This document shows positions 1,153 to 48,205 of a stretch of 64,000 bases of DNA, piece after piece. The position numbers and the translations under genes were made by a program. How positions within the stretch are numbered: the stretch's first letter is position 1; each line of letters opens with the position of its first letter. Origin of the DNA: an uncultured Bdellovibrionales bacterium (GTDB taxonomy: Bacteria > Bdellovibrionota_C > UBA2361 > J135); NCBI GenBank assembly GCA_964523015.1, contig CAZFXN010000003.1:22117-86116 (forward strand), written 5' to 3'. Below the pieces are notes generated by a model. That model made no database searches and had not been told where the DNA came from. It worked only from the letters and a program-made list of their open reading frames with translations.

Positions 1153-2073
1153 TTAGAATGCATTCTTAAGCTGGACTCCAAATCCTATCAGCAAGATTAC
1201 AAGGAATCCTAAAAACACTAAGCTCACTGGGCCGGTTGCAAGAAGTTCTAACTTCTTAATTCGTCCCTCAATATAAGCTTGTCTTTGAGCACTTACAGAA
1301 TCCGCTAGCTCTTGTAACTGACGGGTGATTTCACCACCATGTTTGGCTACTTGGGCAAGATACATAAAAGCATGCTTTAGTTCAGTTTGACCGGAGGCTT
1401 TTCCTGTCTCTACCATTGCTTCTTCGAAAGGCACGCCTGACCTAATGTAATTTTGAGCATACTTTACAAGCTCTGTTACTACATTGTGAGTATCCCGTTC
1501 GTCGGCCATCTGAACTACTCTTTGTAGACATGGTCCAATGTCGAGAGAGCTACTTACTCCGATTGAGATCTGCTCGATAACGAGTGGGAGGTAAAACATG
1601 ATCTCTTCGTTACGCCATAGGATTCTACGATTTAGTATTGAAAAAGGAACTTGATAACCAACTACAGCTCCCATAATTATTCCCATAAGCCCAAACTGTG
1701 CTCCGGCCAAACTCCATAAACCCGCCCCTAAGACTGGAATTAAAACGACAGGGCAAAATATTCTTAATCTATAAAAATCGGCCTTTTCTCGCTCTGAAAA
1801 AATTCCTGCTCTAAAAATTTTCTGTTCTAAAGTGAGCTTTTCCTTAGTTTTTCGCCGCTTAGCTTTGGCTGCGTCCTTAATCTTACTCAACTCCTCATCA
1901 GAATGCCCTGCTCTAGATTTAGCAGCTCCTCCTTCCCGAGTTCCTATAGCTGAGGGCATCATCCCCCGAATTCCTTGAGATTGATTTCCGCGGAAGAAAT
2001 AGAAGAATAGGGCAATACCACTGATAACAGCGAGGCCTAATAAGACTATCCCAAAAATCATTTTCGTATCCAC
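1153..2073 (-). CDS. tadC: TadC-like Flp pilus assembly inner-membrane protein (T2SS-F family)
   Basis: 306 aa with an N-terminal TM helix, a helical soluble core and C-terminal TM helices. It lies directly after the tadB-like gene. GTG start preceded by AGGAGG. Confidence 0.7.
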   Translation of the reverse strand: MDTKMIFGIVLLGLAVISGIALFFYFFRGNQSQGIRGMMPSAIGTREGGAAKSRAGHSDEELSKIKDAAKAKRRKTKEKLTLEQKIFRAGIFSEREKADFYRLRIFCPVVLIPVLGAGLWSLAGAQFGLMGIIMGAVVGYQVPFSILNRRILWRNEEIMFYLPLVIEQISIGVSSSLDIGPCLQRVVQMADERDTHNVVTELVKYAQNYIRSGVPFEEAMVETGKASGQTELKHAFMYLAQVAKHGGEITRQLQELADSVSAQRQAYIEGRIKKLELLATGPVSLVFLGFLVILLIGFGVQLKNAF

Positions 2074-2112: not shown

Positions 2113-3075
2113 TTATACTCGGATCTTCGTAACCTGCCTGATCCAAAATATACCTAAAAGAATTACCACAATACCTACTTGCCAAACCTGCCACCCTAAT
2201 TCATCTTTCCAAGCACCAACAATCAGATCTGGTGCAATAAAATACATATAGACCATAATAAGAAGTAGGATGACTATAATAATCCAGATAGATCCTCGCT
2301 GCATGCCAACTGCATGATAAGCCGAATACCTAAAGTATTGTCTCTTTCGAACCTGTTTAGCTAATCGATCTATAGTATCAGAAAGATTTCCACCTACCCT
2401 TCGACTAAGCAGCAAAGCTTGTACAAAGAGCTCTATCTCTTCATGAAAGATATCTTCACCAAATGCTCCGATAGATTGATCTTCAGAAACCCCCATCCTA
2501 AGTCGTTCAAGCATTAATTCAGTCTCTTGTTTAACCATGGAATCTCCTTCTAGTCCTTCCGCCGCAGCTTGAAGAGCTTGAATTGTATTCATTCCGGTTT
2601 TTAGCAATCCCACTAACGAAAGTAAGAAAGATGGATAATCTTTATCAAAAGCATTAAACCGCTTATGTACGGCAGTTGCTAACATCCAAGACATAAAAAT
2701 TGGGCCAGCTGTTAGGGACAATAACTGCAAAAGGAAATTAAACCTTGTTCTTACGATCAGAAAAAATACAAGGCTAATTATCGCAATAAACACATAAAAA
2801 AGGGTCGGTGAAATAGTCCATTGTGCATACCGTAACTTCTTTTCAAGAGTTAATCGTGAGTCTGTTACTTTTTTAACTCTGTTCTCTTCAGAGATAAGAT
2901 CAACAATTGATTTTTGTGGCCCTCCCTTTTGAACTGCATAAGAGTTAGTTGTCCTTTGGGCTTGAACAAGCGTTTTTACGGAATCGCCACTCGAGCCGAA
3001 AGGAGAGATCCCTAAGAAGAATGCAATCCCTCCTAAAAGGGTAACTCCGGCTAAGACAAATAAAACTATCGCCAT
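2113..3075 (-). CDS. tadB: TadB-like Flp pilus assembly inner-membrane protein (T2SS-F family)
   Basis: 320 aa with the same TM / helical core / TM layout as TadB. It sits between the tadA and tadC homologues. Confidence 0.7.
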   Translation of the reverse strand: MAIVLFVLAGVTLLGGIAFFLGISPFGSSGDSVKTLVQAQRTTNSYAVQKGGPQKSIVDLISEENRVKKVTDSRLTLEKKLRYAQWTISPTLFYVFIAIISLVFFLIVRTRFNFLLQLLSLTAGPIFMSWMLATAVHKRFNAFDKDYPSFLLSLVGLLKTGMNTIQALQAAAEGLEGDSMVKQETELMLERLRMGVSEDQSIGAFGEDIFHEEIELFVQALLLSRRVGGNLSDTIDRLAKQVRKRQYFRYSAYHAVGMQRGSIWIIIVILLLIMVYMYFIAPDLIVGAWKDELGWQVWQVGIVVILLGIFWIRQVTKIRV

Positions 3076-3136: not shown

Positions 3137-4606
3137 CTATCCATTGTTTCCCATAGGAACATTACTAAACGTCAACTCTGGGGGAGCTTGGTTTAAGTAA
3201 ATTCCATCACGAGCTAAATCTTCATCAAAAGAGCTATTCCAAGAATGTACTCTCCAGATAGGTCTATCCCCCATCTGTTCTAAACTAAACATCGGCTTAA
3301 CCTGGATCATGCCCTCGACATAACGGCCTACTTCTATGATCTCTCCTATCCGAACTTTACCGGATCCCTTTTCTCTTATCATCCAAACAATAGAATCGAC
3401 GGCAAGAGCGATCTGCTGTCGGATAATCTCTACTGATACAGATTTTTGAGCTCGCCCAAGCAAACTTTCTAATCTAACTAAGGTCTCTTTTGCGTTTCGA
3501 GCATGGATAGTTGACATTCCGATATGACCAGTTTGAGCACTTTCAAGAAATGCCTCTCCGGCTAATGGACTTCTCATTTCTCCTAAGATTACTCTAGTTG
3601 GAGTAAGACGTAATGTCGTAATAATATGCTCTTGTAGGGTCACCTGACCAACACCTTCTGTATTAGCTGGACGTGAGATCAAACTTCTAAAATATGGATG
3701 TTGGAAATTAAGTTCGGGGGTATCTTCAACTGCGATAATTGATTCATCAGATCCAAATTGAGTTCCTAAACAACGAAGCAATGTTGTTTTACCAGTTCCA
3801 GTTTCACCAGCTATAATCATCGTGGCTTTTCCAGACCTAATTAAACTCGCCATATAATTTACAATCAGTGGCGGAGCTACCTGATAGGCTAAAAGAGTCT
3901 CTAAGGATGCATCTATAACTCTGGGAACACGAATAGTAAGAAGTGGTCCACGCATTCCACATACGCTTTCATGCACGGCGCAAATACGTATTCCATTCGG
4001 AAAAGAGGCATCTACAGTATGTTGCTGAGTAGAAAGAGATTTCCCTAATCGCATTAAGATACGATCAATAAAAGCTACGTAAGCTTCCTTACTAGGCCAA
4101 TGTATCCCTGTAGTTTCACTTTTTTTACCACGCTGCAAAACTACAGTCTGATAATCGTAAGCGTGAATATCTGTCACTTCTCTGTTATCAATAAGAGGTT
4201 GCAGCACACCCCAACCAACAAGATCTTTTTGTAAGTGGATAATGACATTTGCTCTTTCAATGTCATCAAGTGACATTGCTCGTCTCTTTATAACCCTATC
4301 AACAGCCTGTACAATCTGATTCTCTGAGACAACGCGACTTGGATCGTCACTATGAGTGGAATAGTCAGCTCCTAATTCACGTCTTGCTTCTCGCAAAACC
4401 ATACTAGCCTGCGGGGACAACTGTCCCTTTGCAGCTCCAGAATGAGATTCAATAGGTGAAACAGTTGTTGTTGATGTCCCTCTGTGCGAGGTTTGATTTC
4501 TCTGTTTATTGATCGCATCGCCACTTCCGTCAGTACGCAATGCATCTGGTCGAGTAGAGAATAGCCCTATTAGATTCTCACCATCTTTCTTATCGCCATC
4601 TGACAT
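3137..4606 (-). CDS. tadA: TadA/CpaF-type secretion ATPase (T2SS-E / VirB11 superfamily)
   Basis: 489 aa with Walker A in IIAGETGTGKTTLL, an Asp box (IIAVEDTPEL) and a His box (GHIGMSTIHA). The N-terminal extension is S/T-rich and looks disordered. Confidence 0.9.
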   Translation of the reverse strand: MSDGDKKDGENLIGLFSTRPDALRTDGSGDAINKQRNQTSHRGTSTTTVSPIESHSGAAKGQLSPQASMVLREARRELGADYSTHSDDPSRVVSENQIVQAVDRVIKRRAMSLDDIERANVIIHLQKDLVGWGVLQPLIDNREVTDIHAYDYQTVVLQRGKKSETTGIHWPSKEAYVAFIDRILMRLGKSLSTQQHTVDASFPNGIRICAVHESVCGMRGPLLTIRVPRVIDASLETLLAYQVAPPLIVNYMASLIRSGKATMIIAGETGTGKTTLLRCLGTQFGSDESIIAVEDTPELNFQHPYFRSLISRPANTEGVGQVTLQEHIITTLRLTPTRVILGEMRSPLAGEAFLESAQTGHIGMSTIHARNAKETLVRLESLLGRAQKSVSVEIIRQQIALAVDSIVWMIREKGSGKVRIGEIIEVGRYVEGMIQVKPMFSLEQMGDRPIWRVHSWNSSFDEDLARDGIYLNQAPPELTFSNVPMGNNG

Positions 4607-4658: not shown

Positions 4659-5564
4659 TTATCGTGGCTTCTTCGAATTTAATTCCGAAGCAGGAACCAT
4701 CTTGCCGTCAATCAACTTGTACTCAACCCCACCGATCTTAATAGTACCTTGGATATTAGGGTTCTCATCAACAGTTCTTTCAGTAGTTCCAAGTAGATCA
4801 TCAAAAGTGATAGTACCGCCCATCTCACTCTTCCCTAAATCGTTATCTCCGCGAAGGGTCAGACTTAGTGTTCCTGAAGTTCTAGCTAACTGTATTTTTT
4901 TAGCATCTTGGGCTGTAACTAACATAGTAACCGTACTTGGGATCGCTATTGATTTTCCTGTCTGCTCAACTTGACTCTGGGTCAACGACTCCGCAGAAAG
5001 AATTTTCGCATTCTGAACTATAGTTATCACAGCTTGCTTGCCGCGATTCTGGGTCGTCCAAACAATATCAACTCTTGCACCTGGCCTTGCCCATCCCTCA
5101 ACAGCACTAGTCGCATCCACACGAATAGTAACAGCACGATACCCATCTGGAATTTCAGGGGTAATAACACTACTAGGTCTTACAGTTGTTATATAATCAG
5201 ATAGGAGTGGTGCATCAGCAGCAATAAGAGATCTGGCAAAGGTACCCTTTATCTCTTCATAATCACGGACAACGCGTCTTGGAAGCCCCTGCTTAGGTCG
5301 CGATTCCTTACGGAACATTGACGGCTCAAGTCTTACCCCAGGCTCTAAAGACTGCACTGGAACAAGAACCTCAACCATCGCAACCTGAACAGGGACCTCC
5401 TTGATCTGAGGATCAGCTACTGTAGCAGTAGTGGAATCATTACTTAGAACCAGGAACCCTACAAAAGTAAAGACCAACACTAAACCAACACCAACGGCAA
5501 GGCCTAATGCCCTCGTCCTTTGTTGATTCCTTCCTGGATGTACTCCACCAAAATACCCGCTCAT
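4659..5564 (-). CDS. cpaB: CpaB/RcpC-type Flp pilus assembly protein
   Basis: 301 aa with an N-terminal TM anchor. The SAF-like and RcpC-like blocks are IPDGYRAVTIRVDATSAVEGWARPGARVDIV and QNAKILSAE. Confidence 0.8.
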   Translation of the reverse strand: MSGYFGGVHPGRNQQRTRALGLAVGVGLVLVFTFVGFLVLSNDSTTATVADPQIKEVPVQVAMVEVLVPVQSLEPGVRLEPSMFRKESRPKQGLPRRVVRDYEEIKGTFARSLIAADAPLLSDYITTVRPSSVITPEIPDGYRAVTIRVDATSAVEGWARPGARVDIVWTTQNRGKQAVITIVQNAKILSAESLTQSQVEQTGKSIAIPSTVTMLVTAQDAKKIQLARTSGTLSLTLRGDNDLGKSEMGGTITFDDLLGTTERTVDENPNIQGTIKIGGVEYKLIDGKMVPASELNSKKPR

Positions 5565-5670: not shown

Positions 5671-5832
5671 CTATATGCTGGCCGCTATTTTGCTGAACTG
5701 CTGACTAACCTTAGTTCCAACTAACTGAATCGCAGCCATAGCTACAATTACTATCAACGCGGCTAACACAGCGTACTCAATAAGAGTAGCGCCCTTTTGC
5801 CTGTTACTATTTTTAACTTGTTCCTTAACCAT
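5671..5832 (-). CDS. flp: Flp/Fap-family type IVb pilin precursor
   Basis: 53 aa read from the internal ATG at 5832, with GGAGG 8 nt upstream. The Flp processing motif G/ATLIEYAVLAALIVIV is present. The longer 79-aa ORF in the track is probably an over-extension. Confidence 0.85.
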   Translation of the reverse strand: MVKEQVKNSNRQKGATLIEYAVLAALIVIVAMAAIQLVGTKVSQQFSKIAASI

Positions 5833-5985: not shown

Positions 5986-7293
5986 CTAGTCAGTTTCAGC
6001 TTGCCTTCTCAACTGCTCAATTCCTCCAAAGTTTTCATCCTGCCCATCCTTTCCTTTCTTTCCAAATATCTTCTGCAAAAAGCCTCCGCTATTCTGAGTA
6101 GGGCCTCCACTACCTGGTTCTCTTTTATGTTCCAAATCCACAAGGCCTAGCTCTTTTGCTATGTGTTCAAGAGCAACACGGGTAGATCTCTGACCCATAC
6201 TATATAATGTCCTACCACTACCTGGCCAAAGTGCTGCTTTTGGATCATTTGGCACAGGTGGCAATCGCCAAGGAAGCTCCCCCAAATTATGAGCTGGTTC
6301 AAGTTCTGCAGCAATCTGCGGAACCCCAAGCAATGCGCCAGAGTAAGGATTAACTAAAAATACTATTCGATCTGTGTCACCAACAAGTGACTTAACATAA
6401 GAAAGATAAAGATCGACTGCTGTTAATCCTAAGATTGTATCATCAATCACGATTAGCACAACATCGGCGATGCGCATTAGGGCGCCTGTTGCTGGTCCCA
6501 TTCTACCACCAGTGTCGATGACAATAGCATCGTGCATTACTCTGGCTAGTTCAACAATGCGCTGAGCAATTCCCATTCCATCGGTATGACAAACTAGATC
6601 CATGGACTCAGCCATACTGTCAGGAGGCATCAACACGGATACGTCACTACTAATTGGGATCAATGCTTCTTTAAGACTATCTCTAGTTAATTCCCTAGTT
6701 CCATTAACCCATGCACTTACAACTTTTGCTTCTATCCCGTTAACAGTTAACGATCTACATAGGTCCCGAGTTTCTACATCTAAATCCCATAGCATGGTCC
6801 GTCTATGGTAAACGCTGCAAACTTCGGATAATGCTGCGGCCACAGAAGTAGCTCCGGTACCTCCCTTGGCATGAGTAACAACTACTACCCGACCCTCTCT
6901 AGTACGACCCTCTCTTCTAAACTCAGCATGAATCGCAACTAGCTCTTGTAAGAAATCTAGAGGTGACGCGCTATCAGGAAGAACTTTTCTAACTCCGACA
7001 AAGTGAGCTGCTCTAAAAGCACCACCAGAGTAGGCTTCATTCGTTACAAACATCACGATATGAATCCAAGGCACTAGAGCTTTAGAACTCCGGGCAATGG
7101 CAGTTGCCTTTTCACCAAGCCCAGATCCCAATACCAAAACATCGGCTTCGTGGAGTCGCTCAGTAAAATCTTTATCATTCACGAGCTTAACTCTCAGATC
7201 GAGAGTTTCAACATCACTCTGATTGAATGCTTCGATTCTCCGGGCAACGACCGCTTGGGCCTCTGTAGAGCTATCGACTATCAGCAATCTCAT
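5986..7293 (-). CDS. tadZ: TadZ/CpaE-type protein: receiver-like N-domain + ParA/MinD-like ATPase
   Basis: 435 aa. MRLLIVDSS... forms the receiver-like fold, followed by a deviant Walker A, VVVVTHAKGGTGATSVAAAL. It sits immediately upstream of flp. Confidence 0.75.
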   Translation of the reverse strand: MRLLIVDSSTEAQAVVARRIEAFNQSDVETLDLRVKLVNDKDFTERLHEADVLVLGSGLGEKATAIARSSKALVPWIHIVMFVTNEAYSGGAFRAAHFVGVRKVLPDSASPLDFLQELVAIHAEFRREGRTREGRVVVVTHAKGGTGATSVAAALSEVCSVYHRRTMLWDLDVETRDLCRSLTVNGIEAKVVSAWVNGTRELTRDSLKEALIPISSDVSVLMPPDSMAESMDLVCHTDGMGIAQRIVELARVMHDAIVIDTGGRMGPATGALMRIADVVLIVIDDTILGLTAVDLYLSYVKSLVGDTDRIVFLVNPYSGALLGVPQIAAELEPAHNLGELPWRLPPVPNDPKAALWPGSGRTLYSMGQRSTRVALEHIAKELGLVDLEHKREPGSGGPTQNSGGFLQKIFGKKGKDGQDENFGGIEQLRRQAETD

Positions 7294-7362: not shown

Positions 7363-8772
7363 TCAACGAAAATCTCCTCCAATCTCACCTATTCTATAAC
7401 CATCAACAATGCCAGATTTCCGATCGAAGAAATTAGGCCAGATATACTTTAATGCAGCTAATCCAACAAATACACCTACTAGGATAGCGATAATAAAAAT
7501 TGTGGCATTTAACCAAAATCCAGTGCGTCTAGATCTATCTACAGCCTGGGAAAGCGTTCTAATTCGACCTCGATCAATCCGCTGCATCCCAACATTCACT
7601 TTAGATGACTTTCTAAGGATACTTTTTGCTTCCTCAACTGGATCGTTATCAAGCAATCGTTCAAGCTGAGCACCATTTTCAGAATACATATTTTCAGCAA
7701 TCTCATTCATTGCTGGTCGTGAAATTATAATATCTGCAGTTTCTTCAATACTGCCTCGTTTTGGCAAAATATAAGTATCCTCTCTTGGAGCAATCTGAAC
7801 TCTTGGAAACTTAATATCATCCTCAACAACTGTAGTTTGTTCTTGAGCTACTGCATGAGACCTTGGAACAGCATGACTCTTAGTTCTGGCAGGGGAAGAA
7901 GCTGATGATGACGAAGAGCCTGCCGTCTCGGCAAGGAGCTCCTGTACATCATGATATATCTCCATGGTCGTTTGGTAGCGAAGCTCTGGATTTCGCTCCA
8001 TAGCATGTAAGATAATCTCATTGAGCCTTGGTAAACAATCTGGTCGATGTTGAATTGGTGGAACTGGATCAGATCTAAGTCTAAGGGTCATCGTTGCTAT
8101 AACACTATCCCCCTTAAAAGGTGATTGTCCGGCTACCATTTCATAACCTAAAACACCAATTGCATAGATATCTGAACGTGTATCGACTTGGCCCTTCTCT
8201 AAATATTCTGGGCTAACATAATCAATAGTGCCGACTACCCCCCCATGCTCAGTTAACTTCGGACCATGTCCGGTACGGGCGATACCAAAATCTGTAATTT
8301 TGACATCTCCCTCTTGAGTTAGAAGTATGTTCTCAGGCTTTAAATCTCGATGAACTATCCCAGCATCATGAATTGCTTGAACCCCTGATGTAATTTGACT
8401 TAAAAGACGCAGAATAACTTGTATTGGCATCGGTTCCCCAGTCGCCAATCGATCAGCTAAGTCTCCTCCAGCCACATACTCCATTGTATAAGCAACAAGA
8501 TCTCCATCCCTAAAATATTCATATGCTCTTACAACGTTTGGATGAGACACCCCATAGGATGCGACTATTTCATTTCTAAACCTTGCCGCAGCAACATTAT
8601 CTTTGGCAACTTCAGGAAATAAAACTTTTACTGCAACAAGATGCCCTGCCAGCTCTCTATGTCTACAGGCATAAACTAATCCCATGCTGCCAGCACCAAG
8701 GCATTTCACGACCTCATACCTGCCGGCAACGACAGTTCCTGGTTGTAATGTGATCAAACTTTGATCAGACAT
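7363..8772 (-). CDS. Hanks-type Ser/Thr protein kinase, C-terminally membrane anchored
   Basis: Motifs seen are G-loop LGAGSMGLV, VAVK, HRDLKPENILL, DFGIAR and GTIDYVSPE. A single TM helix (ATIFIIAILVGVFVGLAAL) lies near the C-terminus. Confidence 0.9.
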   Translation of the reverse strand: MSDQSLITLQPGTVVAGRYEVVKCLGAGSMGLVYACRHRELAGHLVAVKVLFPEVAKDNVAAARFRNEIVASYGVSHPNVVRAYEYFRDGDLVAYTMEYVAGGDLADRLATGEPMPIQVILRLLSQITSGVQAIHDAGIVHRDLKPENILLTQEGDVKITDFGIARTGHGPKLTEHGGVVGTIDYVSPEYLEKGQVDTRSDIYAIGVLGYEMVAGQSPFKGDSVIATMTLRLRSDPVPPIQHRPDCLPRLNEIILHAMERNPELRYQTTMEIYHDVQELLAETAGSSSSSASSPARTKSHAVPRSHAVAQEQTTVVEDDIKFPRVQIAPREDTYILPKRGSIEETADIIISRPAMNEIAENMYSENGAQLERLLDNDPVEEAKSILRKSSKVNVGMQRIDRGRIRTLSQAVDRSRRTGFWLNATIFIIAILVGVFVGLAALKYIWPNFFDRKSGIVDGYRIGEIGGDFR

Positions 8773-8801
8773 CTTATCTCATTAACTAAAGCTTTTTAAC
8801 T

Positions 8802-9548
8802 CTATCCTTTCACTACTAAACAAACGTGAAAGCAACGTTTACCAAAAGTTATCTTGTCTCCATTTTCAATGCTTCCCATGGAGCCAGAGAGTTTTTCCTC
8901 CTCTCCTTCAATATGACAGATCGATGTTCCATTCTCAGAGAGCTGATCCAACACCTGAATCGCTCCAACTTCAGAGATTTTTAATATCGCATGCAAGGGA
9001 GAAACTGAAGCGTCCTTAACAATTAAAAAATTCCCATCTGATGTTCTTTCAGAGCTAACAATCCATCTCCCTGATCTTAATTCTAAAACCTCACCGGCAG
9101 GGTTACTGTCATAAGAGACTAGAAACCCAACTATTGGAGTTAATTTTTCAGTAACAACGCCAACGGTATTGTTACGTGCAGCTTGAACTACTGATTGATT
9201 AATCGGGGACCCTGTTGCGGCAGCTGACCTTGCTTCGACTGGAGAAGGATTTCCAGTACCACTACTCCCACCACGAGATGGCTGTGGTTCTTTTGACCCA
9301 TCACGTGTAATTAAACCAGTCATTGCACTTGAAATGTTATTAACTGGAGAAAATGAATCACCGCCTTTCTGACTCTCTTTGCCAAAAATATCACTTTGAC
9401 GATCTTGGTTTAATAAAGCACGAACTTGTCCCGTCACCTCTGGTGTTAACATGACTGTTCTGTTTCGTGCACGATTAGCAGCATCTGAGGTAGTCTCATC
9501 TTTTCGTTCCTTACCGAGAGTTTTCTCAATGTTCTTTTCGTTATCCAT
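8802..9548 (-). CDS. FHA-domain protein with low-complexity S/T/G/Q-rich N-terminal half
   Basis: The C-terminal FHA signature is LRSGRWIVSSERTSDG...VSPLHAILK...LSENGTSI. I prefer the ATG at 9548, which has a GGGGA SD-like motif, over the TTG at 9566. Confidence 0.8.
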   Translation of the reverse strand: MDNEKNIEKTLGKERKDETTSDAANRARNRTVMLTPEVTGQVRALLNQDRQSDIFGKESQKGGDSFSPVNNISSAMTGLITRDGSKEPQPSRGGSSGTGNPSPVEARSAAATGSPINQSVVQAARNNTVGVVTEKLTPIVGFLVSYDSNPAGEVLELRSGRWIVSSERTSDGNFLIVKDASVSPLHAILKISEVGAIQVLDQLSENGTSICHIEGEEEKLSGSMGSIENGDKITFGKRCFHVCLVVKG

Positions 9549-9578
9549 AACCTTATCCCCTATCAATAAAATCTACCG

Positions 9579-10541
9579 TTAACCTAAAACTCCAATTAAG
9601 ATCATTACTGCAATTAAAATTCCTAGAAAACTCATACCGATTAACAATGCACCAAATTTAAAATTTCGTGGAGCACGCGATTTCTTGGCTGACTGACTAA
9701 CATTGATCTCTTTCTTACTTAAGAACCCAACAGGAAGTTCATTTTTAAGCTGTCCTCCAATCGGAATGATTGAAACTGTAATATTGTCATAGCCTCCTCG
9801 TGACTTTGCTAGCTCAACGAGTTGAACGCACGCTCTTTGAGGTGAACTACTAGATACGATATTAGCCATCTCGCCATCACTGACCAAACTGTAAAGCCCA
9901 TCAGAACAGAGAAGGATATAATCAATCGGATCAGCACCTACAGCGTCCCAGATCCATAACTTATCAACATCAATTTCTAGCCCTGGCTCTGAACCAATAC
10001 ATCGAGTCAAGACATGAGCTTGTGGATGAGACATTGCATCTTCAGCTCCTATTTTACCTTTATCAACTAAATCTTGAACGTATGTGTGATCGGTGGTTAG
10101 CTGTTGAATCGCAGCATCTCTGATTAGATAAGCTCTAGAATCTCCAGCGTGTGCAATTGAAACTTCAGATCCATTAAACATCACCGCAACCACAGTTGTA
10201 CCCATTCCTGAGAAAGCTGGATTTTGTCTTCGTAAAACAATAACTCGATTAGCTTCAAGAATTGCGGCTTTAAGTGCAACTTCAACTGGACGTGCCGGAA
10301 GATTTTCTAGATCACGACGGATAGCATCAATTGCTAATTGAGCAGCTAGCTCTCCACCCATTGCGCCGCCCATGCCATCACAGACAATCCAAGCAAGACC
10401 TGAGGAACTTTCGATCACTGCATAGCGATCTTCATTCAACTCACGTTCACAACCTGTGTCAGTAATAGCAGCAGGAACAAGCGGATCCCCTCCGGTATTC
10501 TCGCTGTCTCCTTCACCTTTTTTAAATCCTTGCAGTAACAT
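9579..10541 (-). CDS. PP2C-family Ser/Thr phosphatase with C-terminal TM anchor
   Basis: Motifs seen are EDRY, CDGMGGAMGGELAA, AHAGDSRAY, CSDGLYS and GGYDNITV. The C-terminal hydrophobic helix is LLIGMSFLGILIAVMILIGVL. Confidence 0.9.
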   Translation of the reverse strand: MLLQGFKKGEGDSENTGGDPLVPAAITDTGCERELNEDRYAVIESSSGLAWIVCDGMGGAMGGELAAQLAIDAIRRDLENLPARPVEVALKAAILEANRVIVLRRQNPAFSGMGTTVVAVMFNGSEVSIAHAGDSRAYLIRDAAIQQLTTDHTYVQDLVDKGKIGAEDAMSHPQAHVLTRCIGSEPGLEIDVDKLWIWDAVGADPIDYILLCSDGLYSLVSDGEMANIVSSSSPQRACVQLVELAKSRGGYDNITVSIIPIGGQLKNELPVGFLSKKEINVSQSAKKSRAPRNFKFGALLIGMSFLGILIAVMILIGVLG

Positions 10542-10809
10542 GAAAACCTTTCAAAGTTATTGCGTTTGCACCTTGTAAAAGTACAAACCAAAATTACCAA
10601 TGTGTTGAGATCACTCTAGTGGTGTACTCTCCCTTCTTCGCTTTCCCAAACGGAGGGTAAAACTTTACCCTGTGTCATATAATCGGCTGATATGTGCTTT
10701 ATCTATAATATATTACAGAGATTTTTAGTTGGGAAATAATCATATCGCTGTTCTGCTAGTCAGAACAGAATAAATCTGGGAAATTTCATAACCTACTTAT
10801 TTCATTAGA

Positions 10810-11268
10810 CTAATTTTTCAAGATCTCAAATACGCAATTTTCTTTATCTGGTCTACACCGTGCAAGGTACCCCTGCTTCGCTATCCAACTTTCAAGCTCC
10901 ACCCATCCGGCATCATTTACCTGGTAATCCGAGATCTTATCTCCTTTTTTACGCTTAAGAGGAAATCCTGCCCCCTGCCACCGTGCTTTTAAGCTCTCAA
11001 AGCGTCCCCCAACTAAGGCTCGCAATTTAGAAAGTGAGTCTATCACAATCCATTCACTCTCCGCATTAACATCTCCCTCTGCCGAGCTCGCAGGTTGTCC
11101 TGACAAACTAAATCGAAGTGCTAATTGATGAACTAAGAAATCTTTATTTTTCTTAAACGCCTCATTAAAGACTTGGCTAAGAAGATCTTCAGAATCTCTT
11201 ACAATAGTATTTGGAAATCTTTTTTGTTCTTGTTCAGTCATAACTAATAATAAATGTACCTGTTTCAA
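10810..11268 (-). CDS. hypothetical protein (152 aa)
   Basis: Intact ORF in the same orientation as the upstream sensor gene, separated from it by a 24-nt gap. No motif recognised. Confidence 0.45.
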   Translation of the reverse strand: MKQVHLLLVMTEQEQKRFPNTIVRDSEDLLSQVFNEAFKKNKDFLVHQLALRFSLSGQPASSAEGDVNAESEWIVIDSLSKLRALVGGRFESLKARWQGAGFPLKRKKGDKISDYQVNDAGWVELESWIAKQGYLARCRPDKENCVFEILKN

Positions 11269-11292
11269 TGGTAAAGTATCCTCTAAGTTTGA

Positions 11293-14106
11293 TTAGATAC
11301 TCTTTCCCCCATGTCCATCAAGCAACTCTTTAATCTCAAAAAAAAGTTTTCTCCTTCCTACTGGTTTGGTTAAATATTTACTCGCTCCAGCAGAGAATAT
11401 CTGATCCTTTAAATTATCCTCAATGTTTCCACTGACTACTATAATTGGTATCCCAGTACCATACTGAGTACGGATCTCTCGAACTAAATCTAATCCATTT
11501 TCTTGATCTAACTGCAAGTCGGTCACCACTAAAGATGGGGGCTCTCCTTTTTCAAGCAATAGCTCTCTAGCTTTTGCAAGATTAGTAGCACTGCCACATG
11601 TTAACCCCAAAGCTTCCGCCACACTACTATAAAACGTAACGATCTCTGCTTTGTCATCTACTAAAAGTACCCAACCTCCGCTCATCACCTCTCTTTGCTC
11701 AACCTTAGCAACCTTAAAAGTAATTTTAACGATATTATGATTTTCCCCTAGTCCCTTTGAAAAATCGATCCTCGCTTGACTTAAGGCAAAGAAATTTTTA
11801 ATTGATCTAAGAGAATCGGTATCTCTCCCCTGTATAAAATAATCATCTATTTTAGACTTTCGCTCAGAGGAATCTGTAATTTGGACTACTACTAGGCCCT
11901 CCTCAGTCCAAGCTTTTAGCTTAATGACATCATCACAACCAAAATTACGTGTCGCCGCCTTAAGCAAAGTCCTAAGTGATGCTTCTAAAAATTCACGACT
12001 TACTACCAGTATCCCTAATGATGCCTCAAGGTTTAAATCAACACTTTGCTTAGCGCCGCTTCTTCTAATTTTAAACTCAACAAATGCTGCGGCTTCCTCA
12101 AGAGCAGACACTATATTTACACGCTCAAGAGCTCCCGCCTTTTTCATCGAAGCAATTTCTCGCAACCATTTTACATCAGAAACACTTGCCGATAAGCTTC
12201 TAAGTGCGCCATCTAGATAAGAGATCTGCCCATTAAACCTCTCCTTAATTTCTTTGTAATTATCACTTTTCTCTTTCTCTACGACGATTCCTTCGAGTTG
12301 TTCAAGTACCGATCTACAATTATCTACCACAATGGATAAATCCTGAGCAGAATTGTTCACTAGATGAATGAGATGATTAAGATCCTCTTCCTTTGAATCA
12401 ATCCCACCACCACCAGTAACAATGACTTGCGAAACTCTTTGATTAAGCTTTTGAGGGCTGCGGCGAATTCCAATATTCTGAAGTAGTCCTGATGCATATT
12501 CTTGAAACTCGCGGGCTCCTATTAGCTTTACGGTGTAGGACACTGGCAAAAAGACATAAAAGATCTCGCTTTTATCTTCTGATGGTAGAATAACCCTACA
12601 AAAGTATATACTGCTTGGAATCTCCCCAAACCAGTAGAATAGTGCTGGATCAAACTGTCGACCCATATGTTTTTTAAAAAGAAGTCCTACGGCATTATCT
12701 TGATCTCTGGCAAGGCTAACTAAACCTTGAACAAATAGTGGATCAATATCACGAGTGCCGATCTGGCCTCCTCCCAAAATTATACTCTCAGATTTTCCAT
12801 AGGTAACTAGTATTCGCTTGGCATCTCCGAGTAATCTCAAGCTCTCAGATAAGCTTTCGATCAAATTTTTGGGATCTAGAATCTCTCTCGTTGTTGTCAA
12901 TAATCGAGGGAGTAAAACTGCACTGGAAAATCTTACATAATGTCGAGCATTCCTATACATAGTGTAAACTATTACAAATCCATCTAGCATAAACATAAAT
13001 ATAGGAGTACTGGATGCGATCACATGAATAGCTGCAAAAACAGAGAATAGGATAGTTATTGCTATATTAAATTCTTTAATCCAAGGAACAGTAGAGAGCC
13101 CTAACATGATCAACAACAATCCAGTTTCAGAAGTCGATAAATCGATCACCCCGTAAACAAAGGCATTCATCCACCAGATAAAAAAGCTACATCCAGCAAG
13201 AAGCCAGAGTGACTGAAGCTCATATAAATTATCCCTTCTCGAGCTTTGAAAAAATATTATTACCTGAATCAAAAGTATTATTACCCAAGAGACATAGTAG
13301 GGTACGTCTCTACAATTTTCAGAAATTGCAAAAAAGAGAACGGCTGCGCCGACAATGATTGCAAGGGGAACAAACCGCCAACGAAATTCTTTATCCATAC
13401 TCTCAGCAAGAAATGTTGCTGAAGAGGAGAGCTTGCTATAGGTCTGAGAACCTGATTTTTCTCTCTCATTAATGCTCTCTTCTGATCTTGCTCCCTCAGC
13501 ATCCTTTAATGATTCATCGAGATCAAAATTTCCCTGGGTATTCTGTTCATCGATCTTTTTTGCTGACAAAGCGATAAGCGTTGATACGATTATCGATCCC
13601 GCACCTATCAACCAGGACTGATTTTCTGCAAAAACAATGTCATAAAGAAATAAAAGAACAGAGAAGATAATTACCGGAGCGATCACGTAGATAATTGATC
13701 TGACTTTTAATCTCATCACAGAAAGCAATGAGATCGCTATTGCTGTCGGTACAAAAAAAGTAGCGACCAGCGGTAGCTTAAATCCGATCACACCGACAAA
13801 TAAAATTATACTAATCCAAAAAAATTCAGCTCTAAGAATATTGAGGGTTAAGTATAAAGCTCGTTTTTGATAGAGCAGATTGAGCAAAAAAAGGGCAATA
13901 ATTACTGATAATTTGATTGCCAAAGACTCAGTTGTTAATAATGGTGAGAAGATATCCTCCCAGGGCAGAATATTTGGACGGATAGCGGAAAAAACAATCA
14001 ATGCCACAAAGGCAATAAATTGTGGAACGATTACATGACTGTAAAAGATCCGAATCTCCCCGATCGGAAGACTGATCCAAGTTGGTGATTTTTTAACCTC
14101 TAACAT
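11293..14106 (-). CDS. polytopic membrane sensor with histidine-kinase-like core (ATP-lid motifs not recognisable) and C-terminal receiver domain
   Basis: 937 aa. The first ~400 aa contain about 10 or more TM helices interrupted by an acidic loop. A candidate H-box is EEDLNHLIHLVNNSAQDLS. The receiver is VLLVDDK...VVTDLQL...IIVVSG...LTKP. I could not find the usual DxGxG / GxGLGL ATP-lid motifs. Confidence 0.7.
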   Translation of the reverse strand: MLEVKKSPTWISLPIGEIRIFYSHVIVPQFIAFVALIVFSAIRPNILPWEDIFSPLLTTESLAIKLSVIIALFLLNLLYQKRALYLTLNILRAEFFWISIILFVGVIGFKLPLVATFFVPTAIAISLLSVMRLKVRSIIYVIAPVIIFSVLLFLYDIVFAENQSWLIGAGSIIVSTLIALSAKKIDEQNTQGNFDLDESLKDAEGARSEESINEREKSGSQTYSKLSSSATFLAESMDKEFRWRFVPLAIIVGAAVLFFAISENCRDVPYYVSWVIILLIQVIIFFQSSRRDNLYELQSLWLLAGCSFFIWWMNAFVYGVIDLSTSETGLLLIMLGLSTVPWIKEFNIAITILFSVFAAIHVIASSTPIFMFMLDGFVIVYTMYRNARHYVRFSSAVLLPRLLTTTREILDPKNLIESLSESLRLLGDAKRILVTYGKSESIILGGGQIGTRDIDPLFVQGLVSLARDQDNAVGLLFKKHMGRQFDPALFYWFGEIPSSIYFCRVILPSEDKSEIFYVFLPVSYTVKLIGAREFQEYASGLLQNIGIRRSPQKLNQRVSQVIVTGGGGIDSKEEDLNHLIHLVNNSAQDLSIVVDNCRSVLEQLEGIVVEKEKSDNYKEIKERFNGQISYLDGALRSLSASVSDVKWLREIASMKKAGALERVNIVSALEEAAAFVEFKIRRSGAKQSVDLNLEASLGILVVSREFLEASLRTLLKAATRNFGCDDVIKLKAWTEEGLVVVQITDSSERKSKIDDYFIQGRDTDSLRSIKNFFALSQARIDFSKGLGENHNIVKITFKVAKVEQREVMSGGWVLLVDDKAEIVTFYSSVAEALGLTCGSATNLAKARELLLEKGEPPSLVVTDLQLDQENGLDLVREIRTQYGTGIPIIVVSGNIEDNLKDQIFSAGASKYLTKPVGRRKLFFEIKELLDGHGGKSI

Positions 14107-14144
14107 GAACCTAGTTAAAACCTTATTGCCTATTAATAAATTCT

Positions 14145-14744
14145 CTAAGAAACTTCAGGATCCAGCTCCTGTGAACACTTAGCGCATTTAACCTTTCCAA
14201 TAACCTCAGGTGGTAATTGTGGAACACCATGAAAAGTTACAATGTATATTACATTACCGCATGATTTACATGGTGGCAGAGTCCCATCCATATTCTGAAA
14301 TAACTTTCGACTACTTGAATCAACATAATTGAGTAAAAATTCCTCAAGAGGGATTCCATCAACAGAATTGCCTAGGGAGGCACCAATAATCTCTTTAATA
14401 CGAGCAAGAAACTTATCATTTTGGGCTTGCGGAGAGCCTTTGACAATATAGTCTGCCGCTCCTTCAGTAATAAATCTTTGCTTAAGATGGACCGAGGGGT
14501 TCCCGGTAAAGATTACAATATAGGACACCTTGCCTAATCTTCTTAGATCATGAAACAAGTGAGATCCAGATTTGTCACCTAATCCAATATCTAAAATGGC
14601 CAGTCGAAATTGAGAAGCTAGAATCGCTTGCTCTGCCTGTCCCACGCTTTCACAAGACTCAACTGAATAACCACTATCAGAAAAAAGTTTTGTTAACCGT
14701 TCTCGTTCACCAATCTGATCTTCTACAACTAAAATATCTTTCAC
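14145..14744 (-). CDS. response-regulator receiver protein with C-terminal CxxC...CxxC zinc-ribbon-like tail
   Basis: Receiver motifs seen are ILVVEDQ, LAILDIGL, IVIFTG and IVKG. The tail is PPCKSCG...KCAKCSQ. GTG start preceded by a GGGGG SD-like run. Confidence 0.8.
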   Translation of the reverse strand: MKDILVVEDQIGERERLTKLFSDSGYSVESCESVGQAEQAILASQFRLAILDIGLGDKSGSHLFHDLRRLGKVSYIVIFTGNPSVHLKQRFITEGAADYIVKGSPQAQNDKFLARIKEIIGASLGNSVDGIPLEEFLLNYVDSSSRKLFQNMDGTLPPCKSCGNVIYIVTFHGVPQLPPEVIGKVKCAKCSQELDPEVS

Positions 14745-14998
14745 TAATTACCCCCAAGGTAAATCATTTAACGGATCTATATTTAGCCATAGCAGGCTTA
14801 TGGTATCCTTATTGTAAAATCGTACTTAATTGACCGTTATCCTAAGATAAAGTCGGCATAAAAAAAGCTGCCATTAACACTCAATTTCATGCATCAAATC
14901 TTTAAGGCTTGGTGTTTAATTTTTATAACAATGTTACTCCCTAGAGAGTCTCTGTTTGCTCTCTAAAACCTATTTAGTGACTGTTATGTAAGGATAAT

Positions 14999-16306
14999 AT
15001 GGCATCTGAGGATGTCTGCATACTTCTTAATGAGAGAGAGTCAGCAAAAGCAAAAGCTGCCGAGTCGCTACTCCTGAAATTTAAGGAGCATAATATAACA
15101 GCGTCTCGAATTACAGCAGATGCTAAGATTGAAAAAACTCTAAAACAGAGGTCTCCAAAGATAGTCATCTTAGACTACGTTATCGGAGACTTTACTACCG
15201 GTCTCGACCTCCTTAGCAGCTTTGCAGATCTAGATGATCGACCAGAATTTATATTTCTAACTGATGAGCCTAGTGTACCTGTAGCAGTGGATGCTCTACG
15301 ACTTGGGGCAAAAAATTATATTGAGCTACATAATCCTGAAGCCACTAATATTATCCTTGAGGAAACAAAAGCAATCTTAAAACAGAGAACTCCCCGACTT
15401 CGTGCAGCTCCAGTAAAAGAGCGATTAAAATTTAAAAATTTTATAGCTCAATCCAAAAGCACAATAAGCTTAATTAATCAGGCCCGAGCTCATTTACTTA
15501 GCAAATCTCCTCTTACGATCATATTGGGACCAAAAGGTGCTGGAAGATCTGCTTTAGCTGAAGCTATGCAGCTTGAGCGAAATTCGACTGCATTTTGCCG
15601 ATCCTTAAACTGGGACTTATATCATCGAGACATAAATGAACTGACTGGTATAAAGACAGTAGATAATAAATCCCTAAAGCTTGGATTAAATCTCTCCTTG
15701 ATATTAGATCATGTTTCCTCAGGATACACTAATTTACTTGAATTTATTGAAGGTAATCTCAAAGACTATTGGTCTTCAAGAGACCTAACCGCAAATGATT
15801 CCTTTCTTACAATCTGCACTGAGGATGAAGGCTGTGCAAAGGCTTGGCACAATATATTTGAAGTTCCTATTCTTACTATGCCATCACTTAGTGAGAGGAA
15901 AGAGGATCTACCAGCCCTAGCCAGACATTTTCAATCTGAGGCAAGTTCACTTTCCGGCTCAAAAATGACAGCACTAAATAATGACATACTAGGAAAACTT
16001 TCTGATTTTAATTGGATCGGTAATGTAAAGCAGTTACGAGCGGTAACTATTGATGCTTGTCTCATCTCTCATACTTCTGAACAGGAGATAGAGGATATGG
16101 TGCGTGAAAGTTATGAAAGGTCACTAGAATATTTCAAAGAGCCAACTTCAAATTCACTAGAGCCGTACACTATTGCTTCTATGATTGAGCATTGTGACGG
16201 AGATATCAGGGTAGCTGCCGCATCCCTTGGAATTTCAATTACTCAGGTTAAATCGATCCTAAAGCTACCTTCATCAGTTGATTCATCACAACCAAGGAGC
16301 AGTTAA
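14999..16306 (+). CDS. NtrC-family-like protein: receiver-like domain + degenerate AAA+ sigma-54-interaction domain + Fis-type HTH
   Basis: A Walker-A-like ILGPKGAGRSALAEAM is present. Walker B is altered (LILDHV instead of hhhDE). No GAFTGA-type loop was seen. NWIGNVKQLRAV resembles WPGNVRELEN. C-terminal HTH is DIRVAAASLGISITQVKSIL. Confidence 0.65.
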   Translation: MASEDVCILLNERESAKAKAAESLLLKFKEHNITASRITADAKIEKTLKQRSPKIVILDYVIGDFTTGLDLLSSFADLDDRPEFIFLTDEPSVPVAVDALRLGAKNYIELHNPEATNIILEETKAILKQRTPRLRAAPVKERLKFKNFIAQSKSTISLINQARAHLLSKSPLTIILGPKGAGRSALAEAMQLERNSTAFCRSLNWDLYHRDINELTGIKTVDNKSLKLGLNLSLILDHVSSGYTNLLEFIEGNLKDYWSSRDLTANDSFLTICTEDEGCAKAWHNIFEVPILTMPSLSERKEDLPALARHFQSEASSLSGSKMTALNNDILGKLSDFNWIGNVKQLRAVTIDACLISHTSEQEIEDMVRESYERSLEYFKEPTSNSLEPYTIASMIEHCDGDIRVAAASLGISITQVKSILKLPSSVDSSQPRSS

Positions 16307-17850
16307 TGAATCAATACGCTCAAAAAAAACGAAATGTGACAGCCGGAATTATCGGTGGAATTGATTTTCAACGTCGCTTTCATTCATCACTTTCTAGCCA
16401 TAGCTCTGTGGTCAGCTCTTTTGCTTGCTCCCCAATTGAAGCCTGGGGAGAAACATTAGGTCACAAACCTAACTGCTTAATCATTGAGGTTGGAATTAAC
16501 TATTCTCAAAGAGATCATATCTGGCTTAGAGACTTTTTAAATCAAGTCAGAGATCGTTTCGACAAAGATGTTTATATTATCTTAACATTACTTGCTCCAG
16601 AAAAACTTTTTTATGCCGGGGATCTGTTATTTACCTCTGAAAATTCACTTGAGGCTTCCGGTTATATCGATACATTTCTGGCTCAAGCTCCAGCTGGTTT
16701 CACTAACGTTCCTAGCCTTGAAACTCAAATTGTCCAAGCCATCTCTTTATTAAGCCACGAATTTGAACGGCGAGAAGGTGGGTTACCACCAACTCCGGCG
16801 CTTGCTGCAGATGGTTGGGTGCATTCTTTAGCTGACCCACAAAGCCGAGAACTCTGGATGCTCTGGTTACCAAAGTATGCTTCTTATACAAATGAAAACC
16901 CGATTATTACCGGCCCAACTGGTGCAGGAAAAACACGACTTGCTCAAGCATTGCATATTCTATCAGGACGTACCGGGCCATTTATCAGTATTACACCAAG
17001 AGACTTTTCCTCATCTGAACTAATTCAAGCTGAGTTATTTGGGGCTGTAGCTGGCGCCTATACCGGTGCCGTCGATAAGTGGGGGCTCGTTAAAAGCGCA
17101 GAAAATGGAACTCTTTTTATAGATGAATTACAAAGTATCGATAAAGATCTTCAAGGTAAGCTAATTACCTTTATTGAAAACAAAAGTTACCGCCGAGTCG
17201 GTAGCGCAGATACGGTCGAAGCAAACGTACGATTTGTATTCGCAACTAATCGAGCAATTCCGGAGTTAGTAAGTAACGAGACTTTGCGAGATGACTTCGC
17301 CTATAGACTAGAACGGGTACAATTAAACTTACCAGCCCTATCGCAACGTCGGCTTGATATTGCGGCAGGGTTAGCTTTTGCCTTAGCAAAGATCCGACGT
17401 CAGCGTCCCCAAACTAATCCGGTTATTGGAGTCTCGAGTCAAGCTTATAGACTTCTTTTTGGATACAGTTGGCCAGGAAATTTAAGGCAGCTAGAGAACA
17501 TCGTGGCAAAACTATGTGAACGCTCTGAGATCTCTGGACTCTCTTTAATCTCTGATGAGGTTGTGCATAGTGTATTTGATTCAAAACTAGATATGGTTCC
17601 AGCAAATCCAGCAGAGCTGGTAGCTACGGCTGCTCAAAGATTAACGAAATCAGCCATTAGTGCAGGGATAGAAAATCTTGAGGATGGAGTAATCGCACTT
17701 AAAAATGAAGCCAGGGCCGTTGCTCTAGAACTCGCTAATGGAGATTCCGCAAAAGCTGCAGAGCTTTTAGGTGAGAATTCTAATGTGCTAGATATATTTC
17801 TAAGTGCTAGAGTAGCAAAAGAGATGATATCCTCTCTAAGTGAGTCTTAG
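16306..17850 (+). CDS. sigma-54-dependent enhancer-binding protein (no receiver domain; novel ~190-aa N-domain)
   Basis: Motifs seen are Walker A ITGPTGAGKTRLAQAL, the loop ELFGAVAGAYTGAV (a GAYTGA variant of GAFTGA), Walker B LFIDELQ and YSWPGNLRQLENIV. A C-terminal HTH-like region is present. The ATG overlaps the upstream stop (TAATG), and GGAG lies upstream. Confidence 0.85.
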   Translation: MNQYAQKKRNVTAGIIGGIDFQRRFHSSLSSHSSVVSSFACSPIEAWGETLGHKPNCLIIEVGINYSQRDHIWLRDFLNQVRDRFDKDVYIILTLLAPEKLFYAGDLLFTSENSLEASGYIDTFLAQAPAGFTNVPSLETQIVQAISLLSHEFERREGGLPPTPALAADGWVHSLADPQSRELWMLWLPKYASYTNENPIITGPTGAGKTRLAQALHILSGRTGPFISITPRDFSSSELIQAELFGAVAGAYTGAVDKWGLVKSAENGTLFIDELQSIDKDLQGKLITFIENKSYRRVGSADTVEANVRFVFATNRAIPELVSNETLRDDFAYRLERVQLNLPALSQRRLDIAAGLAFALAKIRRQRPQTNPVIGVSSQAYRLLFGYSWPGNLRQLENIVAKLCERSEISGLSLISDEVVHSVFDSKLDMVPANPAELVATAAQRLTKSAISAGIENLEDGVIALKNEARAVALELANGDSAKAAELLGENSNVLDIFLSARVAKEMISSLSES

Positions 17851-48182: not shown

Positions 48183-48205
48183 ACTGTCCCATTAAACACT
48201 GACAC

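Follow-up and report, generated by a model that had tools for sequence, protein, structure and literature searches.

What triggers the assembly of Tad pili within seconds is a standing question in the field. Bacteria use these pili to adhere and to form biofilms, and predatory species use them to kill on contact and to invade prey. We analysed a stretch of 64,000 nucleotides (nt) from contig CAZFXN010000003.1 of an uncultured Bdellovibrionales bacterium (the window, to which all positions refer unless a locus is named), in which the genes for a PP2C-type phosphatase, an FHA-domain protein and a Hanks-type Ser/Thr kinase (minus strand, 10541 to 7363) stand directly ahead of a string of Tad genes. 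Does this triad control the machine encoded behind it and, if so, by which route? In the H1 type VI secretion system (T6SS) of Pseudomonas aeruginosa, the kinase PpkA, the phosphatase PppA and the reader Fha1 make up a threonine-phosphorylation pathway that gates the machine post-translationally, and the original prediction had proposed the same kind of gating for Tad pilus assembly. The answer we favour, and hold to be rather likely, is that the triad forms a dedicated membrane-tethered phospho-threonine switch for the downstream Tad-like machine and is co-transcribed at least with tadZ.

From position 10541 down to 1 the minus strand carries one unbroken gene string, as seen from the open reading frames (ORFs) of the window together with Pfam and NCBIfam, which back all gene assignments in it. 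The order is PP2C-FHA-kinase-tadZ-flp-cpaB-tadA-tadB-tadC, followed by a gene of the FHIPEP family. The PP2C Ser/Thr phosphatase (320 aa; 9579..10541) was recognised by Pfam PP2C/PP2C_2 and NCBIfam Stp1/IreP, the FHA protein (248 aa when read from its ATG, a TTG start at 9566 being possible; 8802..9548) by Pfam FHA/Yop-YscD_cpl, and the Hanks-type kinase (469 aa; 7363..8772) by Pfam Pkinase (E = 2e-53). The short spacings that had drawn attention to the locus were borne out by the ORF coordinates, with 12 or 30 nt between PP2C and FHA, 29 nt between FHA and kinase and 69 nt between kinase and tadZ.

The genes behind the triad are indeed those of a Tad system, as had been claimed. They encode a TadZ/CpaE-like protein (5986..7293; Pfam AAA_31/CbiA, partial NCBIfam CpaE_hom/MinD matches, alignment), a Flp pilin of 53 aa with a G/ATLIEY processing motif in the context ...RQKG/ATLIEYAV... 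(5671..5832; Pfam Flp_Fap, E = 1.3e-9), CpaB/RcpC (4659..5564; Pfam RcpC and SAF, NCBIfam pilus_cpaB with 133 bits at a cut-off of 71), the TadA/CpaF ATPase (3137..4606; Pfam T2SSE, best PDB match CpaF with E = 1e-40), and two T2SSF proteins, the TadB-like (2113..3075) and TadC-like (1153..2073) platform proteins, all on the minus strand. The pilin, the CpaF/TadA ATPase, the two T2SSF proteins and TadZ/CpaE together are the features by which a Tad system is recognised. Secretin RcpA/CpaC, prepilin peptidase TadV/CpaA and TadE/F were not found among the 31 window ORFs scanned with Pfam (many ORFs beyond 29 kb, and those below 120 aa there, lay outside the scan). The secretin, prepilin peptidase and minor pilins may sit elsewhere in the genome; in Bdellovibrio, such Tad parts are located elsewhere in the genome (bioRxiv 10.64898/2026.07.08.737194).

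The linkage between triad and Tad genes was followed through 87 related loci, approached from two sides: 39 genome loci were collected from TadA, with one genome per GTDB species, and 48 metagenome loci from the FHA protein, using the family alignment on metagenome contigs. The 39 TadA loci belong to metagenome-assembled genomes labelled Bdellovibrionota, Oligoflexia, Bdellovibrionales or 'Deltaproteobacteria', with TadA identities of 59-87%. The lowest identities in the surveyed loci were ~59% for TadA (in the genome set), 48% for the kinase, 43% for PP2C and 30% for the FHA protein. Seen from TadA, the order PP2C-FHA-kinase-TadZ-(Flp)-CpaB-TadA-TadB-TadC recurred wherever the upstream DNA sufficed, with two exceptions: in L033 the operon is split, TadZ is missing as well and no triad lies within 10 kb, and in L034 TadZ is present and the triad absent. 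Seen from the FHA protein, all 48 metagenome loci had these neighbours too, up to the ends of their DNA. In the pooled set, TadZ came after the kinase in every locus that extends far enough (47/47), PP2C preceded FHA in 48/48 loci, and a kinase stood before TadZ in 48 of the 49 loci with TadZ. The identical order was read from an 895-kb contig whose genes had been called independently and whose Pfam annotation was precomputed. The neighbourhood survey of TadA and FHA homologues found the linkage conserved in about 70 related genomes, across a wide clade of Bdellovibrionota, and it is beyond chance.

The two most divergent loci narrowed the partnership down. Both L086 and L089 keep PP2C-FHA-kinase-TadZ as a block, followed by unrelated genes, and TadZ is therefore the tightest partner of the triad, which accompanies TadZ and not the whole pilus string. 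In four further loci (L021, L026, L027, L037) the kinase stop and the tadZ start overlap by 4 nt (ATGA), a classic sign of co-translation.

Transcription signals were in line with this picture. A terminator decoupling 10541-7363 from the Tad genes was looked for computationally: a scan for terminators and promoters, together with RNA folding, found neither a predicted terminator nor a significant hairpin in the kinase-tadZ spacer. The folding z-scores of -0.4 (kinase-tadZ) and -1.0 (flp-cpaB) indicate no significant structure, and the counts of promoter and terminator sites in the region were not above shuffled expectation. Ahead of the PP2C gene the expected non-coding leader of 268 nt was confirmed (10542..10809); it contains one sigma-70-like site (10735-10707), which is weak and a consensus match only. 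Rfam gave no match on the whole window, which argues against a riboswitch in the leader. The two-way conservation, the short gaps, the overlaps, the lack of a predicted terminator and the variable flanks bear out a functional tie between the triad and the Tad genes, and comparative genomics strongly supports such coupling.

Both enzymes of the triad appear catalytically intact. The phosphatase has the motifs DGMGG, CSDGL and GGYDNITV and retains the metal-binding aspartates; the kinase has the VAVK lysine, HRDLKPEN, DFG and SPE, conserved in all orthologues. PP2C ends in a single transmembrane (TM) helix (residues 298-316 of 320; nt 9594-9650) that was found in 23/23 orthologues. The kinase consists of the kinase domain (nt 7966-8718), a variable juxtamembrane region, one TM helix (residues 423-441 of 469; nt 7450-7506) and a tail of 28 aa, and this tail anchor was present in 24/24 orthologues. 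The original description of the PP2C motifs, of HRDLKPENILL and DFG in the kinase and of both tail anchors was upheld by Pfam, NCBIfam, TM analysis and the orthologues. Since the sole hydrophobic helix lies at the extreme C-terminus, the catalytic domains of both proteins are predicted to be cytoplasmic and to work without an extracytoplasmic sensor. In the kinase, Pfam and NCBIfam gave no vWA match and no PASTA or other sensor domain, and only 28 residues follow the TM helix. The exact kinase sequence was found on metagenome contigs only.

The family matches of the two enzymes raise the possibility of a general Stk1/Stp1-type pair with an FHA adaptor, similar to PknB/PstP/FhaA-B, which would act on the envelope or the cell cycle and stand beside Tad genes through inherited synteny. 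PP2C passes the NCBIfam Stp1/IreP equivalog NF033484 with 231.6 bits at a cut-off of 230, the kinase domain is PknB/Stk1-like, and a Cob_adeno_trans-DUF2231-SpoIIE group lies upstream in both the window and L092. However, the kinase lacks the extracellular PASTA repeats of Stk1 or any other sensor domain, and against NCBIfam NF033483 the kinase domain alone was matched (297 bits, cut-off 450). The stop/start overlaps with tadZ also speak against such a pair, as does the block staying with TadZ in the most divergent loci while other neighbours differ. Moreover, the 48 loci recovered by FHA alone share the same partners, and the FHA family was found only in the Tad context. An anti-phage defence kinase of the PD-T4-6/MADS type with accessory genes came up through strong PADLOC matches to PD-T4-6 and mad6 and a partial NCBIfam MAD6 match. 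These PADLOC matches span the generic Hanks domain only, MAD6 was matched with 151 bits where 460 are required, no defence family was matched by the FHA protein or TadZ, and the conserved operonic context is Tad rather than defence islands. Because of operon structure and conservation, we regard the general pair as very unlikely and the defence kinase as barely credible.

The reader of the triad had been described as an FHA protein with a long S/T-rich N-terminal half. The FHA identity was supported by Pfam (FHA, Yop-YscD_cpl), AlphaFold 2 (AF2) and Foldseek; the S/T-rich half is present as well, but there is more to it, namely a conserved short motif followed by a disordered linker of variable length. 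The protein is built from this N-terminal motif, a predicted short helix, the linker (~60 to >300 residues in the family) and a C-terminal FHA domain (nt 8805-9146). In the AF2 model residues ~135-248 form a canonical FHA fold with a predicted local distance difference test (pLDDT) score >90, and the remainder is disordered. The family comprises ~311 clusters (50% clustering, E <= 1e-30), none of which carries a functional annotation.

Close to the N-terminus lies the extended motif RARNRTVML(T/S)PE, whose core RARNRTVML occupies residues 26-34 (9447..9473, minus strand; from the alignment, with coordinates checked by translation). Across 119 homologues R26, A27, R28, N29, T31, V32 and L34 are invariant. 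The RARNRTVML pattern occurs in 251 of 257 sampled family proteins, and the other six retain the Thr and the Leu at +3. The same 119 homologues keep G160, R161, S183 and H186 of the FHA domain without exception, i.e. the phosphate-binding Gly-Arg and the Ser-x-x-His. Thr31 with Leu at +3 is therefore a candidate phospho-acceptor and the best site that we found. The top Foldseek neighbours were the FHA domains of MDC1, OdhI/GarA, Chlamydia CT664, FhaA and Bdellovibrio DgcB; of these, the domains of OdhI/GarA, MDC1 and DgcB recognise the phosphorylated N-terminal tail of their own protein. The GarA/OdhI entries 6i2p, 7rj3, 4qcj and 8p5x were among the top fold matches, with FHA-domain identities of ~20-27%.

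By analogy with these proteins we infer self-recognition of the FHA protein as the core of the mechanism. The kinase would phosphorylate Thr31 once clustering or dimerisation, at the membrane or where the pilus is assembled, has switched it on; activation by local concentration or dimerisation is probable because the enzyme has no sensor domain. An FHA domain would then bind the resulting pT31-x-x-L, in cis (closure of the GarA/OdhI type) or in trans (pairing of the DgcB/MDC1 type), and this capture would alter the binding capacity of the FHA surface or of the N-terminal peptide. The likeliest partner would be TadZ, which resembles a localisation/assembly ATPase and is always co-inherited with the triad, and through this protein the switch would act on the TadA motor, governing its recruitment or its activity. 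The tail-anchored PP2C would reset the switch. The outcome would be a fast, reversible gating of pilus assembly that is independent of transcription and resembles the T6SS pathway.

In TadZ itself, an N-terminal receiver-like domain precedes a ParA/MinD-type domain with the sequence KGGTGATS (alignment), and the NCBIfam CpaE_hom match was below its cut-off. The protein ends in GGFLQKIFGKKGK (residues 403-415; nt 6049-6087, minus strand), of which hLxKhFG(R/K)K is conserved in orthologues. This tail closely resembles the amphipathic membrane-targeting helix of MinD, KGFLKRLFGG, and suggests that TadZ may bind the membrane directly. RARNRT could conceivably act on TadZ as an activating peptide of the kind known for ParA/MinD-type ATPases; we did not rank this possibility since KGGTGATS lacks the canonical P-loop Lys. 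Comparison of TadZ from triad-linked loci with TadZ of the triad-less L034 gave nothing decisive on phospho-sites.

Several points weigh against a self-binding switch acting through TadZ. In much of the clade surveyed, the chromosome around the locus is syntenic, so part of the linkage conservation reflects shared ancestry. Within the FHA domain, the Asn of the S-x-N-G-T loop varies in the family (N/F/H/S/Y). The N-terminal motif was not docked on the FHA domain in two AF2 models, those of the window protein and of the short-linker homologue P0046, and had a pLDDT of ~47-62; as AF2 works without the phosphate, this result is neutral. Sigma-54-like GG-N10-GC sites, e.g. TGGCGTGACTTTTGCT, precede flp in several relatives, 24-73 nt downstream of tadZ in L008, L010, L012, L040 and L051, and none is present in the window. 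The pilin gene may hence have its own promoter, dependent on an enhancer-binding protein (EBP), in part of the clade. If the structural genes own a promoter, one transcript is needed only for the triad and tadZ. Finally, it is co-inheritance that points to TadZ as the putative target, the organisms are uncultured, and the proposed switch is deduced from sequence.

The original prediction had placed the phospho-threonine on TadZ or TadA, with the FHA protein docking there. In such a scheme, the kinase would phosphorylate TadA, within LFSTR or the S/T-rich intrinsically disordered region (IDR), or TadZ, and docking of the FHA protein would license motor assembly as in the T6SS TssL/Fha model. 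TadA consists of T2SSE and an N-terminal IDR of ~100 aa only and has no FHA domain, which places it in 'class II' (N-terminal IDR) of the CpaF scheme of PMC12019362. A conserved (L/M)FSTR motif stands at the start of the IDR (residues 15-19; nt 4550-4564, minus strand) in >50 loci, followed by a region with twice the S+T fraction of the core (0.29 vs 0.14), and the IDR of CpaF affects both pilus extension and retraction (PMC12019362). LFSTR is replaced by LFGS/LFGA in L034, which has no triad, and L035, which has no FHIPEP gene; this contrast has n=2. On the other hand, the Thr is not invariant, being replaced in L069 (IFSAR) despite the presence of the triad and in L029 (MFSSR), position +3 after it is unconserved, unlike in typical FHA ligands, and LFSTR is kept in L033, where no triad lies within 10 kb. 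This lack of conservation at the TadA Thr and at +3 makes docking on TadA or TadZ weaker than the Thr31 reading; we consider it possible, though on balance doubtful. It is compatible with self-binding at Thr31, and both sites could be used. The actual mechanism probably differs in detail from the docking first proposed. A plasmid tblastn search for canonical CpaF N-termini returned plasmid-borne CpaF genes with only ~30% identity to TadA, matches (<=30%) that are too distant for an alignment of the IDR.

At the other end of the string the locus holds further surprises. The FHIPEP (SctV/FlhA-family) gene starts 29 nt past tadC and extends beyond the window edge, so that its 5' part with the first 374 codons is seen here (1..1123, minus strand; Pfam FHIPEP, E = 1.6e-125); in relatives it is found, for example, at L008:13634-15730 and L092:18346-20454, and it follows TadC in 43/47 related loci. 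With 576 bits for SctV and 534 bits for FlhA the protein reaches neither curated cut-off, and the genes next to it include no others of T3SS or flagellar type. It is a solitary homologue of an export gate within a Tad operon. In 28/30 loci it is followed by a protein of ~800 aa with a Pkinase-like domain and C-terminal HEAT repeats (L008:15759-18200, L032:15498-17873), a pseudokinase judging from the replacement of HRD by CGD and the lack of DFG. L032 continues with a protein of two FHA domains (L032:17989-19066). The pseudokinase-HEAT and double-FHA proteins represent a second, probably non-catalytic layer of the phospho-threonine type at the same locus.

These genes raise the question whether the triad governs a larger apparatus made of the Tad-like motor, the FHIPEP export gate and the pseudokinase-HEAT and double-FHA proteins, with the FHA protein of the triad as a scaffold similar to the cytoplasmic FHA domains of SctD/YscD in type III secretion systems (T3SS) or EssC-EssB in T7SSb. 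Besides the recurrence of FHIPEP and of the Pkinase-like HEAT gene and the two-FHA protein of L032, it would account for the Pfam scores of the FHA domain in the window, which are better for Yop-YscD_cpl than for FHA, and for an FHIPEP protein that does not fall clearly with either FlhA or SctV. Yet the triad sits beside TadZ, at the opposite end of the string from FHIPEP, L086 and L089 have triad and TadZ with no FHIPEP nearby, and FHIPEP may simply be the flagellar FlhA of the cell. Triad control of this larger apparatus is in our view decidedly unlikely. A composite nanomachine, in which a Tad-type motor is coupled physically or functionally to an SctV/FlhA-like gate under two-layer phospho-threonine control for a contact-triggered prey attack, is a speculative extension that we rate as rather unlikely. 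Its two layers may be the kinase/PP2C pair toggling a self-binding FHA adaptor at TadZ and the pseudokinase-HEAT and multi-FHA scaffolds at the FHIPEP end. If so, Myxococcus would offer a parallel in its Kil and needle-less T3SS* systems, which are separate there and would be fused in one operon here.

How does the proposed phospho-threonine switch at TadZ compare with known systems? To the T6SS threonine-phosphorylation pathway (for context see PMC3224232, PMC8460266) the resemblance is functional only, a Hanks kinase, a PP2C and an FHA protein serving as writer, eraser and reader and being encoded among the genes of an envelope machine. The T6SS pathway acts on TssM/TssL/Fha1. A periplasmic vWA domain and upstream TagQRST sensors belong to PpkA, whereas the enzymes here are tail-anchored with no domain outside; the FHA domain of Fha1 is N-terminal, whereas here it is C-terminal with an N-terminal Thr motif. 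No T6SS family was found among the scanned neighbours of the triad, and the machine here is Tad-like. Without T6SS genes and a vWA sensor, and with the FHA architecture reversed, the triad is not a member of that pathway.

In its layout the FHA protein matches GarA/OdhI: both are small, carry a conserved Thr motif in the N-terminal part, then a flexible linker, and end in an FHA domain that has the phosphate-binding Arg/Ser. Once a Hanks kinase has phosphorylated GarA/OdhI, the tail is bound by the protein's own FHA domain and the targets are set free. The motif is different (ETTS vs RARNRTVML), as is the linker (~60 to >300 aa here), and their targets are enzymes of the TCA cycle (2-oxoglutarate) with no linkage to a pilus operon, in contrast to the Tad context here. 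NCBIfam gave no match for the FHA protein. Within the same phylum, DgcB of Bdellovibrio bacteriovorus (PDB 6hc0/6hc1) likewise combines an N-terminal tail with an FHA unit; its FHA domain recognises its own pT14 tail, the hydrophobic residue at +3 being decisive, and DgcB was proposed to couple prey contact to an invasion that uses type IV pili (PMC6733907). The T-V-M-L of the motif studied here fits this +3 rule. In DgcB, however, the FHA domain is fused to GGDEF with c-di-GMP as output, and its kinase and phosphatase are not encoded adjacent, whereas in our locus kinase and phosphatase are adjacent and the FHA protein has no output domain. Altogether, the FHA protein shares neither motif nor partners with GarA/OdhI or DgcB.

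FHA domains have been linked to Tad-type machines before. They are enriched in the Kil clusters of Myxococcus xanthus, where KilF is an FHA-ATPase fusion (PMC8460266), and FHA-CpaF fusions form the 'class III' CpaF (PMC12019362). The Kil authors speculated on a T6SS-like phospho-signalling cascade (PMC8460266, PMC12428579, PMC12019362), and in a 2025 review the Kil FHA proteins remain candidates (PMC12428579). Tad genes near FHA genes were also described in Bdellovibrio (bioRxiv 10.64898/2026.07.08.737194). In none of these papers is a Ser/Thr kinase or a PP2C described beside Tad genes. In Kil, FHA is fused to the ATPase, other FHA proteins are scattered and no kinase or phosphatase was reported in the clusters; our locus, in contrast, has TadA without an FHA domain and the full writer-reader-eraser set. 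Full-text literature searches, of incomplete coverage, found FHA enrichment and FHA-CpaF fusions only and no kinase, PP2C and FHA cassette together with Tad genes, in accordance with the original remark, which knew of no such control mode described for Tad pili.

The archaellum of Sulfolobus is regulated by the FHA protein ArnA with ArnB, by the kinases ArnC/D and by a phosphatase. Here too, Ser/Thr phosphorylation and an FHA protein control a type IV filament machine, and the ArnA FHA domain (5a8i) was among the fold matches. This archaeal system, however, works at the level of archaellum gene expression; its proteins are built differently, ArnA carrying a zinc ribbon, and its genes are not joined to those of the motor in the manner of our locus.

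Upstream of the leader follows an accessory regulatory block (10810..17850, both strands; Pfam) that occurs only in part of the clade. It starts with orf152, which has no family match (10810-11268, minus strand), and continues on the same strand with a 937-aa multi-TM protein whose sole Pfam match is a C-terminal receiver (11293-14106) and with a receiver protein ending in CxxC...CxxC (14145-14744). Two EBP-like genes on the plus strand complete it, the first with REC and AAA_lid only and a GPKGAGRS P-loop (14999-16306), the second with Sigma54_activat (16306-17850). Given these two divergent genes, a sigma-54 site was sought ahead of PP2C, and no conserved one was found in ~50 loci. Orf152 is kept upstream in 15/41 loci, and the whole 10810-17850 block is cleanly absent in L092.

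Locus L092 differs in two further respects: a trio of SpoIIE, DUF2231 and cobalamin adenosyltransferase genes directly abuts the triad, and the interval between flp and tadA (L092:14261-14623) holds no CpaB/RcpC gene, which shows that the conserved string does not always include CpaB. The window also encodes a separate PP2C phosphatase of the SpoIIE/RsbU type (385 aa; 19263-20420, minus strand), beside DUF2231 and cobalamin adenosyltransferase genes. The remaining window is housekeeping, with uvrB, uvrC, RNase E/G, methylmalonyl-CoA mutase and comEC. At 46728-51196 (minus strand) a PSCyt1-PSCyt2(DUF1549)-PSD1(DUF1553) protein is fused to DUF2231 and adjoins a DUF1501 protein; the PSCyt1/PSCyt2/PSD1 and DUF1501 pair is typical of Planctomycetes and unusual for Bdellovibrionota.

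Work on Kil and Bdellovibrio has pointed to FHA proteins as likely signal relays, with no kinase, phosphatase or phospho-site in hand there (PMC8460266, PMC12428579, PMC6733907). The clade described here supplies a compact cassette in which writer, reader and eraser stand beside TadZ, together with a nearly invariant candidate Thr and a conserved motif in the motor ATPase, and this makes the vague idea of an FHA relay directly testable. The conserved pairing of Tad genes with an FHIPEP export gate is flagged as a second, unexplained trait of these bacteria. Reversible phosphorylation of proteins is probably what turns Tad pilus assembly on and off in this clade. A known regulatory principle would then apply to a new class of machine, the Tad pili, with a concrete candidate phospho-site, and the threonine-phosphorylation logic of the T6SS would extend to the type IV filament superfamily.

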